Below, piece after piece: positions 1 to 25,755 of a stretch of DNA of 29,017 nucleotides (the stretch's first letter is position 1; the number at the start of each line of letters is the position of its first letter). The stretch is taken from positions 1 to 29,017 of IMG/VR virus record IMGVR_UViG_3300044476_000097. The stretch is one strand, 5' to 3'. A program made the position numbers and the translations under genes. The stretch is from a virus. Lineage: Duplodnaviria; Caudoviricetes. The notes under the pieces were generated by a model, which did no database searches, had not been told where the DNA came from, and saw only the letters and a program-made list of their open reading frames with translations.

Positions 1-18
1 GCGTAGCGTGCGGTTCGG

Positions 19-51
19 TTGTCAAAGAGCCGGGGAGGCGAGGCCTCCGGC
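19..51 (-). promoter_or_regulatory. Hairpin plus boxA-like antitermination element (rrn-leader-like)
   Basis: The minus strand reads GCCGG-AGGC-CTC-GCCT-CC-CCGGC (hairpin), overlapping GCTCTTTGACAA. This differs at one position from the E. coli rrn boxA core GCTCTTTAACAA. Confidence 0.45.
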
Positions 52-57
52 CCCGAC

Positions 58-86
58 AATGTGCCGCCGCCGCCGCCGAAAGTCAA
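58..86 (-). promoter_or_regulatory. Leftward sigma70-type promoter (TTGACT-17 nt-CACATT)
   Basis: The reverse complement of 81-86 is TTGACT, the spacer is 17 nt (64-80), and the reverse complement of 58-63 is CACATT (weak -10). The predicted start near 51 coincides with a hairpin followed by a boxA-like sequence. Confidence 0.45.
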
Positions 87-223
87 GTCGGGCCGCAAGT
101 CGTTGAGCCGCAACGGGTTCCGGCCGGACGGCCCGGATTCCGGCCGAAACGGGACCGCCGCCGACAGGTTGCAGACCACGCGCGAACGTACACGCGAGGG
201 TGGGTGCGTGCGCGCGCGAGCGT

Positions 224-422
224 GGGTCCCCCTCTCTGGCTATACCCCTGCTCCCTCGCCCTATCCGCCCCAGGGTCAACAACTTGGGTCCCCTTTCCGG
301 GTACTTTCCTTATTTTTTACGTAGAAACGGCCCAGGAGCCCTTATTTTTTAAGGTGAGTATGGGGTACGGGTCCCCTTTTGCATGGCCTTCTAGACCCCC
401 TACAACGCAAAGGGGCCCCCTT
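224..422. repeat. Cluster of short direct repeats: GGGTCCCC x3 (+1 variant) and CCTTATTTTTTA x2
   Basis: GGGTCCCC starts at 224, 286 and 369, with the variant GGGCCCCCTT at 413. CCTTATTTTTTA occurs at 308-319 and 340-351, 32 bp apart. No credible ORF covers the region. Confidence 0.7.
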
Positions 423-491
423 CTGGGAGCCCCGGTCGGCGTTGGTAAAAAGGCGGGGCCAGCCTTGCACTAGCCCCTAGGGGTTGGTGGG

Positions 492-770
492 TTACGGAAC
501 CTTGCCCTCGTCCGTACTTTCCTCCGGTACCCTATTGACGAGAAGCTGAGAGGGGATCACAGCTTCAGTCAGGGTATCCGCAAGGGATAGCAGAGACTCT
601 GCCACCCGGAGGAACCCCCTTGATAGGAAGACGATAGCCTTTCTTACGGCGACTACAATTGAGACCCAGATGCTGACATGAAGGGGTACGACTACGACTT
701 CCTCTGAGACGAGCTTGCCGTCGGCGGTCAGCGTCGTAACTGTATAGCTTTCGTACTTGTCTTTTGCCAA
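492..770 (-). CDS. Small hypothetical protein with a hydrophobic segment (92 aa, TTG start: MAKDKYESYTVTT...)
   Basis: 3' part of ORF 492-1004. A GGAGGG RBS lies just upstream of TTG at 770, with a promoter immediately upstream of that. Hydrophobic stretch VVVVPLHVSIWVSIVVAV. Confidence 0.6.
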   Translation of the reverse strand: MAKDKYESYTVTTLTADGKLVSEEVVVVPLHVSIWVSIVVAVRKAIVFLSRGFLRVAESLLSLADTLTEAVIPSQLLVNRVPEESTDEGKVP

Positions 771-789
771 TGTCCCCTCCGTTAGCGGG

Positions 790-818
790 AATATCTCACA
801 CCGCCGATACGTTGTCAA
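790..818 (-). promoter_or_regulatory. Sigma70-type promoter TTGACA-17 nt-GATATT driving the 492-770 gene
   Basis: Perfect -35 (reverse complement of 813-818), 17-nt spacer, -10 GATATT (reverse complement of 790-795), then RBS and start codon. Confidence 0.65.
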
Positions 819-825
819 GTGGTAC

Positions 826-854
826 TTGACTCCTATGGACACTGGGGTTACAAT
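826..854 (+). promoter_or_regulatory. Sigma70-type promoter TTGACT-17 nt-TACAAT, predicted start ~861
   Basis: TTGACT at 826-831, 17-nt spacer, TACAAT at 849-854; each hexamer matches consensus at 5/6. Confidence 0.7.
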
Positions 855-860
855 ACCGGA

Positions 861-1450
861 AACTTCAAGGCGGTGGGATTCACCGCGGCTCTTATTCAGC
901 GCGACCAACCAGAAGAGGTCAACCAGATGCGAACCGAACTGGCCCAGGTGGACAAAACGAAGGCGGATCCGCTCGTGCGGCATAGGCCTAGTTTGCGCCG
1001 CCATCTACCCCTGGGCCGGTTTTTTACTTTCATCGATGTGGAAACCCCTGTTCTCCGGCGCGGAAAAACCAGTAACCGGACCAGCTTTGCAGGCTATACC
1101 GGTGGCGCCCGTTCGAATGACGGAGGCGCCTGCTCAGTATCAAACATTCGTGGCCGCAGATACCGTCGTCAAGACGGGACTCTTGGTTTGCCTTCGGAGG
1201 GAGCAAGGAACATCGGAAATCGGCGTTGTATTCCCGGCAACGAGACGGTATTCGATCCGTCAATTACGCCCTGCGTCCGGGTCAGCATGTCAAACCCCGA
1301 TGTGTTCGGGGGAGCCTCGCCGAGTATAAAGATGTTCACCGCCGGTAGTAGCCTGCATGCCCAGTCAAATAGTGGAGGGGGACTCCGCGCCATGGGTTGT
1401 TCGGTCAGTAGCTAAACTGGGCCCAACATCCGGCCGCAACGGTTCCTCTC
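861..1450 (+). ncRNA. Candidate large structured non-coding RNA (~600 nt), family unassigned
   Basis: Bounded by two promoters. Complementary segments: 937-948/1010-1021 (12 bp), 1057-1064/1384-1391 (8 bp), 1088-1105/1339-1357 (18 bp with one bulge), 1208-1214/1331-1337, 1359-1365/1416-1422, plus many local hairpins. The overlapping ORFs do not look protein-like. Confidence 0.6.
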
Positions 1451-1456
1451 CTCTGT

Positions 1457-1486
1457 TTGACGGAGGGAATGGGCGAGGTCTATAAT
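1457..1486 (+). promoter_or_regulatory. Sigma70-type promoter TTGACG-18 nt-TATAAT for the packaging operon
   Basis: TTGACG at 1457-1462 and a perfect TATAAT at 1481-1486. RBS AAAGGGGA at 1494-1501 and ATG at 1506 follow. Confidence 0.65.
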
Positions 1487-1505
1487 GACTACGAAAGGGG
1501 ATCCC

Positions 1506-1940
1506 ATGATCAGCAATGACCCGGAAGTACCATCGGTGACCAACGCAAGCGACTATATCGGTAAATTCAGGGACAACCAGGACGGCTCAGTCGGCATCGG
1601 ATTTTCAGGATTCGCATCCCAAAACTACTGCATGTGGTGCGGCGAGACTGGCGGTGGACATCGGCCATGGTGTCGATACTGCGTGGATATCGTGGATCGT
1701 CTGGCGCCGGTAGTCAGCGAGCCACCCAAGCAGGCGGAGCGATGGGTTAAGGTAAGGGTCCCCCGGTACGATGCCCGTACCAACTATCATGTGGCTGGCC
1801 TCGCCAAGTGCGGGGTAGACGTAGTTGAATTCCCGCCGCTGATGATGGACTGCGAGAAGCAGTATCTCTTCCCGGACATCGATCCCTACACCAGCGAGAC
1901 CAAGGGTGCGTTCTTCTTCGTTAGGAGTAAGGATGCCTAA
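1506..1940 (+). CDS. Hypothetical protein with a CxxC-x6-H-x3-C putative Zn finger (144 aa); positional terminase small subunit candidate
   Basis: Motif CMWCGETGGGHRPWCRYC. ATG 1506 is preferred over 1485 because it has an RBS and 1485 overlaps the -10. The stop overlaps the terL start. Confidence 0.65.
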   Translation: MISNDPEVPSVTNASDYIGKFRDNQDGSVGIGFSGFASQNYCMWCGETGGGHRPWCRYCVDIVDRLAPVVSEPPKQAERWVKVRVPRYDARTNYHVAGLAKCGVDVVEFPPLMMDCEKQYLFPDIDPYTSETKGAFFFVRSKDA

Positions 1941-3585
1941 GGTTCGCGGGACCAACGTAGATCGCGTTGGGAAGGGTCCGGCCCAGGAAAAGAATAGGTT
2001 TAGGGCTGCGTACAAGAAGTCGCTAAAGATGATGCAGGATGCCCTCCACGAGGATGGGCCGAAGTATCCGCCGGTCCAGCAGGGTAACGGTAGGGGCGAG
2101 ACGCCACTCCATCCCAACGAGGTCAAGGCGTCCCATGGTGTCGATACTTCTGGCGTGCCAGAGGATATCGCATGGGCTCCCCAACCCGGGCCCCAGACGG
2201 CACTCCTACTCTGCCCTGTAGAAGACATTTTCTTTGGTGGCGCGCGAGGGGGTGGAAAGTCGGATGCCCTGCTCGGGGACTGGCTTATGCATCGTCATCG
2301 CCATGGAAAGTTCGCCAAGGGAATCCTGTTTCGGCGTACCTATACCGAGTTGGAAGAACTTATCCAGCGGTCACTGGTTATCTATCCGGCAACCGGGGCC
2401 GAGTACAACAAGTCGGAGCATACGTGGTACTGGCCGGATGGTTCTATCCTCAGGATGAGATACCTAGAGGCCGACGAGGATGCCGCCCGCTATCAAGGGT
2501 TTAACTTCACGTGGATGGGTATCGATGAGATGGGGAACTTCCCGTCTCCACGCCCCATCGACATGCTCTGGGCAACGCTTCGTTCTGCTCACGGAATTCC
2601 CTGTGTAAGGCGCTGTACGGGCAACCCGGGTGGCCCCGGTACCCAGTGGATCAAAGAGCGCTATATCGACCCCAGCGAGCCCTGGGTGCCATTTACGTGG
2701 GCCCCCATCAAGGACCGCCCAGACCTGACCATCGAGAGCGTCTTTATCCCGTCCAAGCTAGAAGACAACGCACGCCTCATGTCGGCGGACCCTCGCTACG
2801 AGTCCCGCCTCGCGGCCATCAATGACCCCGAGATGTTCAAGGCTTGGCGTGAGGGTGACTGGACCATCCTCGCCGGGCGCTACTTCACTACGTTCACTGA
2901 AGACAGCTGCACGGAGGACCCCAAGTATCTACCACCCTGGCTGCCACGCTGGATCTCGATCGACTGGGGCTACAACCACCCGTCTGCTATTTACTGGGCG
3001 GCGTATGACGGGGAGGTAGTCCACGTATACGACGAACTGGTTATCTCCCAGCAGGTTCCCACGGACCTGGGCAAACGTATCGCAAACAGGACGAAGATCA
3101 ATAGCCAGGGGTCAAAGATATCCCGGGTTGTGCTGAGCCCAGATGCTTTCGCGCGTAGGTCATCCCAGAAGACCATCGCCTCCGAACTGGCACAGGTCAT
3201 CCCATGGCCAATCGTTCAGGCAGATAACGACCGAATCGGCGGCTGGAACCTCATGCGTCAAATGTTCGCGTCTGGACAGCTAAAGATCTCAAAGGTATGC
3301 CCGGAGGTAATCAAGAAGCTTAGGACGGCCCAGCGTGACCCACGTCGCCCCGAGGATGTCATGAAGCACGACGGGGACGACGAGATTGATTCGCTGAGAT
3401 ATCTTATCAAGACGGCAGACCTTGAGGTCGCAATTCCTGCCGATGTCGTGTTCAATGACGCTATCAAGGGGTACCTTGAGAACGGCGACTACATGAACGC
3501 ATTCGTTGAAAAGCTTAGACTTAGGGACGCCCAGAAGAATCGGAACAAGCCAATCAAAATCAAACCTAGAAAACGTATGGTATAA
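1933..3585 (+). CDS. terL: Terminase large subunit (550 aa)
   Basis: Q-motif PQPGPQ, Walker A GGARGGGKS, Walker B WMGIDE, coupling motif TGNPGGPG, RNase H-like nuclease motifs SIDWGYNHP and DDEIDSLRY. AGGAG RBS before ATG 1933. Confidence 0.97.
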   Translation: MPKVRGTNVDRVGKGPAQEKNRFRAAYKKSLKMMQDALHEDGPKYPPVQQGNGRGETPLHPNEVKASHGVDTSGVPEDIAWAPQPGPQTALLLCPVEDIFFGGARGGGKSDALLGDWLMHRHRHGKFAKGILFRRTYTELEELIQRSLVIYPATGAEYNKSEHTWYWPDGSILRMRYLEADEDAARYQGFNFTWMGIDEMGNFPSPRPIDMLWATLRSAHGIPCVRRCTGNPGGPGTQWIKERYIDPSEPWVPFTWAPIKDRPDLTIESVFIPSKLEDNARLMSADPRYESRLAAINDPEMFKAWREGDWTILAGRYFTTFTEDSCTEDPKYLPPWLPRWISIDWGYNHPSAIYWAAYDGEVVHVYDELVISQQVPTDLGKRIANRTKINSQGSKISRVVLSPDAFARRSSQKTIASELAQVIPWPIVQADNDRIGGWNLMRQMFASGQLKISKVCPEVIKKLRTAQRDPRRPEDVMKHDGDDEIDSLRYLIKTADLEVAIPADVVFNDAIKGYLENGDYMNAFVEKLRLRDAQKNRNKPIKIKPRKRMV

Positions 3586-3586
3586 T
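3578..3586 (+). promoter_or_regulatory. Extended -10 promoter TGgTATAAT overlapping the terL stop; probable leaderless transcript
   Basis: TG-G-TATAAT at 3578-3586. ATG 3593 lies 7 nt downstream and has no Shine-Dalgarno sequence. Confidence 0.5.
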
Positions 3587-3592
3587 CCGGTA

Positions 3593-3907
3593 ATGATTCG
3601 CAATCTATTCACGAGAACAGCCATTGCAATCGTATTGATCCTGACCGGATGCTCGGCGCCACCTATTCGTGTTGCCACGCATGTGAACAATCGAGAGTTC
3701 TACTACGCAAGATACATTGAGGAATGCGTCGAGATCAGTCAGCCGATCGCACCACCGGGGTGCGCTGCATTTCGTATCGAGGTTAATCGCTACAAGCGCG
3801 TCATCGAAGAGGCCTACCAGGCAAACGAACGTGGTGGGAAGTATCCACTCCAGCTAAAGGAGATGGCAAAACAGCTAGAGAGGGTTAAGCGTGCCAGGGG
3901 TAACTGA
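3593..3907 (+). CDS. Lipoprotein (104 aa); possible outer-membrane spanin or exclusion protein
   Basis: MIRNLFTRTAIAIVLILTG-C has a basic n-region, a hydrophobic h-region and lipobox LTGC. The mature part looks helical and has two further Cys. Confidence 0.75.
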   Translation: MIRNLFTRTAIAIVLILTGCSAPPIRVATHVNNREFYYARYIEECVEISQPIAPPGCAAFRIEVNRYKRVIEEAYQANERGGKYPLQLKEMAKQLERVKRARGN

Positions 3908-4067
3908 CGCTATCGCGGCGCTAATGGAGTTCATCAATAAGTCCGGACTCCCGGATAAGCTGAAGATGGTATTCGACAAGCAACGTGAAACGGAAAAGAA
4001 ACTTGGGTCTAGCGTGGCCGGGATGAAAGACGCACCGGCACCAAAAGGAGTAGACAATGGCAGGTAA
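3891..4067 (+). CDS. Small hypothetical protein (58 aa, GTG start: MPGVTDAIAALMEFINKSGLPDKLK...), absent from the ORF track
   Basis: Manual translation. GAGAGGG RBS upstream; fills the gap between neighbours with short overlaps; amphipathic N-terminal helix. Confidence 0.6.
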   Translation: MPGVTDAIAALMEFINKSGLPDKLKMVFDKQRETEKKLGSSVAGMKDAPAPKGVDNGR

Positions 4068-20854: not shown

Positions 20855-21369
20855 TGGTTCGTAGGGTTACCGTACCGAAGATCCGTGGCCGGATAACCGA
20901 TCCGGCGATGTACGAGACGCTGCGCGACATGGCGAATGTCACGTCGTCTATCATGCAGGAACTCGACGGTGACAAGGTCGGTGGATCCGGAACAAGTGGA
21001 TACCTTCCGAACTGGAGCGATTCCGGATCTAGCCTTGCCGACTCTCCGGCCTATACCGATGGCTCAGGGATTGGCATTGGAACGGAGGCGCCCGGGTCGC
21101 CACTTGATATCCTTGATGATGGGGTTGGCTGCCTCAGGCTCTCTGGCAGCTCGTCCGGATTTGTCGGACTTAGGCCAGCCGCTGCTGCTGGCTCGGTAAC
21201 ATACACTATGCCGTCGGCTGATGGTTCCGGCGGTGATGCATTGGTAACCAATGGGGCCGGTACGCTATCGTGGACTACAATAACCGGTGGCGGTGGCGGA
21301 TTCCCGTATGTTGACCTCGGGCTAATCACCGAGGCCGTCACCACTAGCGTTGACCTCGGGGGATTGTAA
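20854..21369 (+). CDS. Tail fibre-associated protein (171 aa)
   Basis: Fibre-type motifs GIGIGTEAPGSPLDI and TYTMPSADGSGGDALVTNGAGTLSW; TAATG-coupled at both ends. Confidence 0.75.
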   Translation: MVRRVTVPKIRGRITDPAMYETLRDMANVTSSIMQELDGDKVGGSGTSGYLPNWSDSGSSLADSPAYTDGSGIGIGTEAPGSPLDILDDGVGCLRLSGSSSGFVGLRPAAAAGSVTYTMPSADGSGGDALVTNGAGTLSWTTITGGGGGFPYVDLGLITEAVTTSVDLGGL

Positions 21370-22910
21370 TGTCAACCGTTTTCAAGCCACGACGCGGCAC
21401 GACCGTTCAGCACTCTACCTTTACCGGCGCGGCCGGGGAGATGACGCTCGATACCACAAAGAATACCATCGTTGTCCACGATGGGGCTACCGCTGGTGGA
21501 TTTCCTCTCGCAAAGGAGGGCGGAACCGGCGCGCCGTCTAACGCAGAGTATATCGTAGCGACAGCCGATGCCGGACTATCCGCGGAGCGCGTGCTCACCG
21601 ATACGAATTCTGTTGCGTGGGACAAGGCAACTGCCGGGCAGGTAAAGGCAAATGTCCAGTTCGGAGCCACCGGTACGACGGCATGCGTTGGTAACGATTC
21701 GCGGCTATCCGATGCGCGTACGCCAACGGCCCACACCCAGGCTGTCAGCACCATCACGTTCTCGGCCACAGACAAGCTGGCGGGTAGGTCTTCTGCTGGT
21801 GCCGGGGCTGGCGAGGAAATCACATGCACCAGTTACGGGCGTAGCCTACTGGACAACACAGCACTATGGTGGGACAAGGTAAACAGTAGGCTGGGTATCG
21901 GTACCAATCTTCCGGACGATGCGATTCACGTATTGCGCACCGGGTCGCGCGCCGTAATATTCCTGCAAGCATCCGGGACTAACGGCTACGCTGGTCTCAA
22001 GATGGGATCCATCGACCAGTCTAGTGAGTATATGCTAATGGCTGGTCGCGTTAACAACGCTGATGCGTCCGGCCTGGTTATTCGCGACACCGATGCTGGC
22101 GCCGACAGGATGGTGATCAACGATACGACCGGTAAGGTGAACTTTCCGGCCGGAGCGCAGTCTGCTGGTACGGATGTTTCCGTTATCGGGCATACGCATT
22201 CTACGTCGGATGTTCAGTTCGCTGCCACAAACAAGTTGCTCGGCAGGTCAACAGCTGGTGCCGGTTCGGGCGAGGAGATTACGTGTACGGCTGCTGGCAG
22301 AGCATTGCTGGACGATAACGATGCTGCCACACAGCGGACCACCCTCGGACTTGCCGCCCTGGCAACAAAGGCGACAGTTGGAACCACCGATATCGACGCT
22401 GCCGCGGTAACGTACGCCAGGATTCAGAATGTCTCGGCTACCGACAAGGTGCTTGGCCGCAGTACCGCTGGCGCTGGTTCGGTAGAGGAAATTGCATGCA
22501 CTGCGGCAGGAAGGGCGCTCATTGACGACGCCTCCGCCTCCGACCAGAGGACCACGCTAGGACTGGGGACAGCAGCGACGCAGAGTGTCGAGGCTATTCG
22601 ACAGATTCCCCAGAACAGCCAGAGTGGCGCCTACGTTGTAGTAGCCGGTGATGCCGGTAAGCACATCTATATCTCGACCGGCGGCGTGACGTTCAACGCG
22701 TCCGTGCTGGCAGTCGGGGATGCCGTAACAATCGTCAATAACTCCAATGCGAACCAGACGATTACTGCTGGCGCAAGTGTTACCTTTAGACTTGCTGGTA
22801 CTGCAACAACCGGTAATAGGACGCTGGCCCAGTACGGAATCTGCACGTTCCTTTGCGTTGTCGGCGGAGCGACACCTACGTTTATTTGCTCTGGGGCTGG
22901 CCTATCGTGA
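21369..22910 (+). CDS. Tail fibre with an Mtd_N-like N-terminal domain and three internal repeats (513 aa)
   Basis: RRGTTVQHSTFTGAAGEMTLDTTKNTIVVHDGATAGGFPLA matches the major-tropism-determinant N-terminal pattern. Repeat ATDKxxGRSxAGAGxxEEIxCTxxGRxLxD occurs three times; also RLGIGTNLP. Confidence 0.85.
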   Translation: MSTVFKPRRGTTVQHSTFTGAAGEMTLDTTKNTIVVHDGATAGGFPLAKEGGTGAPSNAEYIVATADAGLSAERVLTDTNSVAWDKATAGQVKANVQFGATGTTACVGNDSRLSDARTPTAHTQAVSTITFSATDKLAGRSSAGAGAGEEITCTSYGRSLLDNTALWWDKVNSRLGIGTNLPDDAIHVLRTGSRAVIFLQASGTNGYAGLKMGSIDQSSEYMLMAGRVNNADASGLVIRDTDAGADRMVINDTTGKVNFPAGAQSAGTDVSVIGHTHSTSDVQFAATNKLLGRSTAGAGSGEEITCTAAGRALLDDNDAATQRTTLGLAALATKATVGTTDIDAAAVTYARIQNVSATDKVLGRSTAGAGSVEEIACTAAGRALIDDASASDQRTTLGLGTAATQSVEAIRQIPQNSQSGAYVVVAGDAGKHIYISTGGVTFNASVLAVGDAVTIVNNSNANQTITAGASVTFRLAGTATTGNRTLAQYGICTFLCVVGGATPTFICSGAGLS

Positions 22911-25325: not shown

Positions 25326-25755
25326 GCTGTCCTCAGGGCCAGCGTTTACGATCAGGCCATATACGCCTGCGGATCGGGAGGCGGTTCTGGCCCTAAGAGA
25401 GAAGCATGACAAGACGCTTTGGTTTGCCGATCCAGACCATCCCATTAACTTCGAGTCGTATCTAATGGAAGTTGATGGACAGTTGGTTGCGATCATTACG
25501 GGTAGAATGACAATCGAGGGGTTCGTTATGGTTGACAACGGCTATGGCGAGCCCCAAACCCGGTTGGAAATCCTCGAAACAATGATAGACGCGGCGGCGA
25601 AACGTGCAGAAGAACTGAGGATTCCGGAGGTTCACATGGGCGTTATGCCGGAAAACAGAGCTTGGCTAAGAAGGCTTTTGAAAATGAAGGGAGTCTTCCG
25701 TGATTTCAGAAACCACGTAATCCTTGCCGCTGGCGGCAGACTAGAGGAGAACTGA
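25294..25755 (+). CDS. GNAT-fold acyltransferase-like protein (153 aa)
   Basis: FTIRPYTPADREAV (GNAT beta1-helix1), YLMEVDGQLVAI, and C-terminal V.PEN.AW.R.L.K..GVF pattern. GGAGG RBS before the TTG start. Confidence 0.7.
   Translation: MRQSAANTSGKLSSGPAFTIRPYTPADREAVLALREKHDKTLWFADPDHPINFESYLMEVDGQLVAIITGRMTIEGFVMVDNGYGEPQTRLEILETMIDAAAKRAEELRIPEVHMGVMPENRAWLRRLLKMKGVFRDFRNHVILAAGGRLEEN

Follow-up and report, generated by a model that had tools for sequence, protein, structure and literature searches.

This locus raises the question of what is encoded in the ~600 nt (861-1450) that lie in front of the packaging genes of a tailed phage. The window, by which we mean the whole stretch of DNA that was analyzed, comprises 29,017 nt of the IMG/VR record IMGVR_UViG_3300044476_000097, which is present in sediment metagenome runs. 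CheckV puts the record at ~53% completeness, giving an estimated genome of ~55 kb, of which the window is about half. Annotated genes in the window encode a large terminase, a portal, a major head protein, and tail proteins; matches of podovirus type were weak (SU10 adaptor; capsid_maj_Podo below cut-off). A reading of the sequence alone, here called the sequence-only reading, had proposed that 861-1450 specifies a new class of large non-coding RNA with its own promoter, possibly linked to packaging or assembly. Our analysis indicates that the region is very probably a real structured RNA, whatever its function. The proposed novelty holds to the extent of a conserved, structured non-coding RNA without an Rfam family; it is likely a rare, uncatalogued family among the large structured phage RNAs. 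The features are listed in Table 1.

Table 1. Features of the RNA region and its neighbors, in window coordinates
Feature	Position	Strand	Remarks
Divergent unit	492..818	-	Promoter-like site 818-790 and 92-codon ORF 770-492; left bound of the RNA gene
Sigma-70-type promoter-like site	826..854	+	Points into the RNA; predicted start near 861
5' leader with hairpin 870-886	861..936	+	Folds no better than shuffles (861-930, z -0.2)
Open frame, 162 codons	927..1415	+	ATG with AGAGG upstream; likely not a protein gene
5' module, three-way junction	937..1021	+	Closing 12-bp helix 937-948/1010-1021, probability 0.94
3' domain, ~400 nt	1035..1430	+	Outer helices 1035/1430, 1043/1398, and 1057/1391 are candidates, from sequence
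A-rich stretch and CAGUA motif	1065..1081	+	Kept in both homologues
Candidate pseudoknot	1075-1081/1399-1405	+	5' strand within 1065..1081; complementarity in sequence
Central bulged helix 1088-1103/1341-1357	1088..1357	+	Closes the core
Predicted H-type pseudoknot	1104..1150	+	Stem 1104-1112/1120-1130; loop 1114-1119 pairs with 1145-1150
Arm	1208..1337	+	Helices 1208/1337, 1220/1323, and 1233/1281; hairpins 1244-1261 and 1295-1311
Candidate pseudoknot 1359-1365/1416-1422 and 3' AGUAGCUAA motif	1359..1422	+	
Separate promoter-like site	1457..1486	+	Precedes the 144-aa ORF and terL
144-aa ORF	1506-1940	+	Between the RNA and terL; two CxxC motifs
Large terminase subunit (TerL)	1933..3585	+	PHROG 2, E 2.8e-33; basic N-terminal extension of ~75 aa

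All ten strings and pairings listed in the sequence-only reading are in place. Compared with shuffled sequences, the + strand of 861-1450 folded weakly better (z -1.39; 10 of 100 shuffles were as good), and the - strand gave z -0.73. Two shorter windows, both picked after inspection, gave z -3.4 on both strands, or -2.9 on repeat (1085-1360), and z -3.7 with 0 of 200 shuffles as good (930-1030). The preference for the + strand that had been read from G-U-type pairs was not borne out by these scores, which for 1085-1360 were equal on both strands. The 18-bp bulged helix was equalled or bettered in 2 of 60 shuffles, and among 276-nt coding control windows 1 of 21 fell below z -2.9. One coding control window, at ~25400-25676, gave z -4.3 against 20 shuffles.

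The layout that emerged, a 5' module (937-1021) followed by a knotted 3' domain (~1035-1430), lies near the alternative of a ~165-nt and a ~420-nt piece that had been offered beside a single ~600-nt transcript. The inner helices 1088/1357, 1097/1347, 1208/1337, and 1244/1261 were predicted at ensemble probabilities of 0.93-0.99, and the three outer helices of the 3' domain at 0.03 or less. Within the arm, helices 1208/1337 and 1220/1323 flank a purine-rich internal loop that is loosely loop-E-like. The loop at 1252-1256 could pair with 1032-1036, in conflict with helix 1035/1430.

Database searches upheld the suggested novelty in that GOLLD, ROOL, OLE, raiA, RNase P, and group I and II introns gave no match in Rfam; searches at the gathering threshold and at E up to 10 returned weak, irrelevant matches only. 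No tmRNA or riboswitch was matched by Rfam models or ARAGORN. No copy of the RNA emerged from phage, plasmid, IMG/VR, JGI, or GTDB collections, whether DNA, patterns, or models served as queries, and the DNA searches of phages and plasmids gave short chance matches or nothing. Pattern scans returned 15, 74, 7, 1, and 8 loci in viral sequences, 23 in metagenomes, and 16 in genomes, all judged by eye to be chance and, except for the viral sets of 1 and 8 loci, also checked by nhmmer or blastn. The viral scans with 15 and 74 loci and the metagenome and genome scans are weak blanks, because their patterns required an AGTA at 1136 that one homologue (P0121, below) does not keep. A translated-frame scan of viral contigs gave 25 stretches, none of which was confirmed.

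The regions upstream of related terL genes had been named as the place in which to collect relatives of the RNA. Single-sequence covariance models run beside 81 more distant terminase loci (L001 and the best 80 of 324), which included six of the eight loci from the eight-locus pattern scan, gave nothing below E 0.35. The same was true when the models were run over the full length of six records from the nearest IMG/VR relatives, one of them at least 90% complete. The literature searched, mostly open access (including PMC12990946 and bioRxiv 10.64898/2026.09.22.753630), contained no description of this RNA. The available text of PMC10690425 reports 8,495 short IMG/VR motifs of 29-151 nt, and that set could include a sub-part of this RNA.

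Two independent, diverged homologues were found. The first is a Logan protein cluster (P0121/P0127), recovered with translated 927-1415 as 1 of 49 candidates (45% identity, E 1.5e-24). The second is a 152-nt sediment contig from run X4 (one contig, depth 3), which matches 1090-1150 at 54 of 61 positions without gaps; its loose 5' end carries the A-run and CAGUA motif at unchanged spacing. The 5' leader is outside the span of both homologues, and runs X2 and X3 leave the RNA stretch uncovered.

The claim that the region contains no protein-like ORF stood in part: the 927-1415 frame is open, with a start codon and a potential ribosome-binding site, but its codon score is unlike that of the phage's genes (-0.11 vs +0.05 to +0.28 for all 10 other ORFs). 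A second open frame, 757-1329, also scores unlike these genes and had no relatives among 1.84 billion proteins. Stop-free frames of 160 codons occurred in 5% of 1000 shuffles. The exact 927-1415 ORF was absent from the protein collection, shorter relatives of it were not found, and its product had no family or atlas support.

The homologues bear directly on this frame. In the Logan homologue, the same frame is open for 158-159 codons and ends at the same stop, and the net length differences between conserved blocks are multiples of three. The block at 966 gave 22 of 24 codon-consistent matches in the register of the ORF; its neighbor at 992 gave 26 of 30 in another register, a unique score among 57,974 positions, so that the DNA of the 5' module is kept across a frame shift. 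In the X4 contig, inspection by eye showed three TGA codons in the ORF's frame within nine codons past the aligned block, and three residues after 1149 that are preserved via synonymous changes. A frame kept with synonymous-biased substitutions and without helix covariation had been named as an outcome that would speak against an RNA; the substitutions found gave a mean BLOSUM score of -0.63, vs -0.26 to +0.19 for eight terminase pairs. The one-base-reachability test gave 0.57, inside the comparison range of 0.47-0.60.

Conserved blocks in different registers, stops within the frame of the contig, and the atypical codon usage of the ORF point to an RNA and not to a protein. We take P0121 to be, probably, a false gene prediction where a homologous RNA is encoded. 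If 927-1415 were a genuine gene for a 162-aa protein, either in place of the RNA or in addition to it, this would account for the ATG with AGAGG upstream and for a translation of 45% identity that shares both frame and stop. Against it stand the frame shift and in-frame stops, the poor codon score, the ease with which frames of this length arise in shuffles, the missing database support, and the recovery of 1 cluster vs at least 6 close terminase clusters, and we consider a protein gene very unlikely.

We then compared the predicted pairs with the homologue. P0121 and P0127 are known as translations, and base changes were deduced from their amino acids; the test took the bases that the codons of P0121 permit at paired positions, counting free codon positions as pairable, and in the control the substituted residues were swapped for random ones at equal nucleotide distance. 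For the four testable helices of the sequence-only reading, named before the homologue was known, 30 of 30 pairs were possible (control 25.9 +/- 1.6; 14 of 2000 controls reached this). With helix 1220/1323 of the MFE fold included, the count was 36 of 36 (2 of 2000 controls as good), and all eight helices, among which 1233/1281 and the pseudoknot 1114/1150 were chosen after seeing the homologue, gave 51 of 51 (5 of 2000). Forced changes affected 25 possible helices. Of these, the six model helices and 7 of 19 others were kept, 13 in all, whereas the remaining 12 of the 19 non-model helices break. Both forced changes in the central helix keep their pairs.

Forced double changes were pairable at four of four positions (1209:1336, 1212:1333, 1225:1318, and 1245:1260), vs 61 of 158 background pairs. 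All four fall in the arm, and one pairs through a G-U that is possible on the + strand only. Hairpin feasibility in the variable regions gave 81 of 424 positions. These codons, from one homologue, appear to provide covariation-type support for a multi-helix structure in its core helices. The same data bear on whether the fold might be a chance property of G+C-rich control-region DNA that is conserved for DNA-level reasons. Such an explanation would fit the weak z-score of the whole region, the one coding window in 21 that folds equally well, and the proximity to repeat-rich DNA at the left end of the contig. The four pair-keeping double changes, including the strand-specific G-U, and the permutation test argue against it and make it highly improbable.

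The 1065-1157 core is nearly invariant, with at most 87 of 93 bases unchanged in the homologue. Within it, 1104-1150 is the most conserved block, with zero changes and hence no covariation. The predicted H-type pseudoknot in this block has loops of 1, 0, and 14 nt, lengths that fit typical H-type geometry. Both strands of its 1114/1150 pairing are unchanged in P0121, and the X4 match stops at 1150; as modeled, this loop pairing could fit an intermolecular contact as well as an intramolecular pseudoknot. The 3' strand of the candidate pseudoknot 1359/1422 lies past the homologue's stop. The invariant core and variable side hairpins together suggest a tertiary fold under strong constraint.

Several smaller motifs had been proposed from the letters. 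The first supposed T-loop (1113-1119) is better read as the loop of the H-type pseudoknot, complementary to 1145-1150. The second, in the 1244-1261 hairpin, is not conserved, as the homologue differs at 1251-1252. Of the repeated AGTA, five copies are present, but the copy at 1136 is altered in the homologue (at 1137). Two other candidates were rejected: a likeness of 1219-1242 to the divergent promoter, which 319 of 500 shuffles align equally well, and an excess of palindromes.

The 3' domain could also be a ribozyme of a class not yet described, or could derive from an RNA that once spliced itself or was mobile. Its near-invariant core, its several possible pseudoknots, and the purine motifs that are conserved outside helices would fit such a reading, and large complex bacterial RNAs are often catalytic according to the available text of PMC5737381. 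No group I, group II, or RNase P match appeared at E up to 10, however, no gene is interrupted, and neither a reverse transcriptase nor a homing nuclease is named among the window's annotated genes. We consider a catalytic role quite unlikely.

With respect to expression, both promoters that had been proposed were recovered. TTGACT-17-TACAAT at 826-854 matches the consensus at 10 of 12 positions, and transcription of the RNA is likely to start from this site; TTGACG-18-TATAAT at 1457-1486 matches at 11 of 12 and, with a ribosome site, serves as a separate promoter-like site for the genes downstream of the RNA. Positions 1-3000 contain three promoter-like sites vs 0.9 expected. The sequencing runs listed as containing the phage included no RNA run, a result that is neutral with respect to expression. 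To the left, the divergent 92-codon ORF has a ribosome site upstream and a hydrophobic middle, with no NCBIfam match, and its unit has a terminator-like hairpin at 477-455. To the right, the 144-aa ORF forms a one-member protein cluster without a family or atlas match. Beyond these units, window positions 1-490 look non-coding; they contain runs of G/C and of A/T as well as short repeats, both direct and inverted, and may represent a genome end or packaging-start region. Judging from the record coordinates, a contig of run X1 continues for ~9.5 kb past the left end of the window. Elsewhere in the window, the tail protein at 21369-22910 carries an Mtd_N domain, as in tropism proteins.

This arrangement allows the region to be viewed as a cis-acting leader or switch, in which transcription would stop at a U-run or read through and the 3' domain would tune entry into the packaging operon. 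The U-run at 1020-1025 directly follows the 12-bp helix of the 5' module, a pairing of 1089-1094 with 1128-1133 competes with the central helix and is still possible in the homologue, and no canonical terminator was found after 1430. On the other hand, the downstream genes have the 11/12 promoter-like site and ribosome site of their own, the U-run is kept in P0127 but lost in P0121, and no riboswitch or leader family was matched. A cis-acting role appears rather unlikely.

The stretch 937-1430 is conserved at the DNA level and not as a protein, and it is likely a free-standing RNA gene. A promoter-like site for the RNA, a separate one for the downstream genes, and an invariant core combined with variable side arms fit an RNA that would act in trans. 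For the transcript, a small junction at the 5' end and a ~400-nt pseudoknotted domain are predicted. By analogy with GOLLD and ROOL, we favor, with about even confidence, an RNA that would be abundant in infected cells and would work there as a scaffold or as a particle that binds protein.

The position of the RNA also raised the question of packaging. The suggested link to packaging or assembly is retained as far as position and a basic TerL tail carry it, but the packaging genes have a stronger promoter of their own. The RNA region ends ~500 nt before terL. The TerL tail (window 1933-2160) has 10-12 K/R in 36 residues, as it also does in all three full-length relatives at 71-76% identity, and its MPKV...RFRAAYKKS motif is missing from 15 more distant TerL among the matches listed. 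Related terminases (P0008, P0010, P0012, P0014, P0017, P0018, and others) include many of 740-900 aa, most of which carry PF14528 or PF05204 domains, presumably a sign of inteins with homing endonucleases. In two relatives at 54-55% identity (L017 at ~3400-3900 and L019 at ~3250-3915), an ORF with an HNH-like motif, recognized by eye, precedes terL instead of the RNA.

A packaging cofactor would assemble on the prohead or the terminase by pairing between loops, would be held there by the TerL tail, and would work like phi29 pRNA. The RNA is the unit directly before terL, the basic tail is shared by the window and the three close relatives, and a small terminase subunit is not named in the window. 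Yet the window is about half of the genome, so terS may be elsewhere, terminase relatives at 47-55% identity have no copy of the RNA, and the RNA homologues are not placed beside any terminase. According to the available text of PMC5066667, pRNA occurs in phi29-like phages only, and TerL corresponds in structure to pRNA and ATPase combined. We regard this role as unlikely. It would be just as unlikely, in its wider form, that in a clade of terminase-type tailed phages a 500-nt knotted RNA is part of the packaging motor, docked by the basic TerL tail; if true, the phi29 family would no longer be the only one with a packaging RNA, and this RNA would be a second, independent case.

Large, intricate RNAs of bacteria and phages are rare, and GOLLD, ROOL, and OLE gave unexpected RNA-only assemblies while their functions are still open. 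Another such class, with a knotted core that is nearly invariant, lends itself directly to probing and cryo-EM, and with the RNA adjacent to terL and a clade-restricted basic TerL tail, the long-standing view that no phages but the phi29-like ones have a packaging RNA becomes testable in vitro. Because few examples of this rare RNA family have been sampled, its weight is limited at present.

Taken together, these features place the free-standing RNA that we favor near several known systems. In the available text of PMC12286853, GOLLD is a large phage RNA with multiple junctions and pseudoknots whose function is unknown, GOLLD and ROOL form protein-free cages, and one covariation-predicted pairing proved intermolecular; by analogy with GOLLD, some of the loop pairings drawn here as pseudoknots could be intermolecular. 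Like GOLLD (RF02032, a model of 416 positions), as described there, the RNA has a conserved ~400-nt 3' domain and a separate, more variable 5' part. Unlike GOLLD, it has no match to RF02032 and measures ~500-570 nt, whereas GOLLD often exceeds 800. It also departs from the frequent setting of GOLLD, in that it lies before terL, is very rare, and has no tRNA gene in the window of a record that is ~53% complete.

ROOL (RF03087), as far as PMC5737381 was available, is similar in length (581 nt on average), in having several junctions, and in its phage or prophage host; it has three pseudoknots, and here there are three candidates from sequence and model. The RNA differs from ROOL in the lack of an RF03087 match (one added ROOL search, run without a positive control, was empty) and of a tRNA island, and its conserved blocks are high in identity, whereas ROOL is described in the sources available as having few highly conserved bases.

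In the text available from PMC5066667, no packaging motor is known to contain an RNA other than the pRNA of phi29. The present RNA resembles it as a phage-encoded structured RNA with complementary loops and differs from it (174 nt; 20-kb terminal-protein phages) in that TerL is present, the genome is ~55 kb, and no Rfam match was obtained. Finally, the cabRNA of staphylococcal phages, in the available account (PMC10686824), is likewise a structured RNA of ~400 nt at a terminase locus. In contrast to cabRNA, which lies inside terS-terL coding sequence, the RNA described here lies between genes behind a promoter-like site of its own, and its conservation is that of an RNA.
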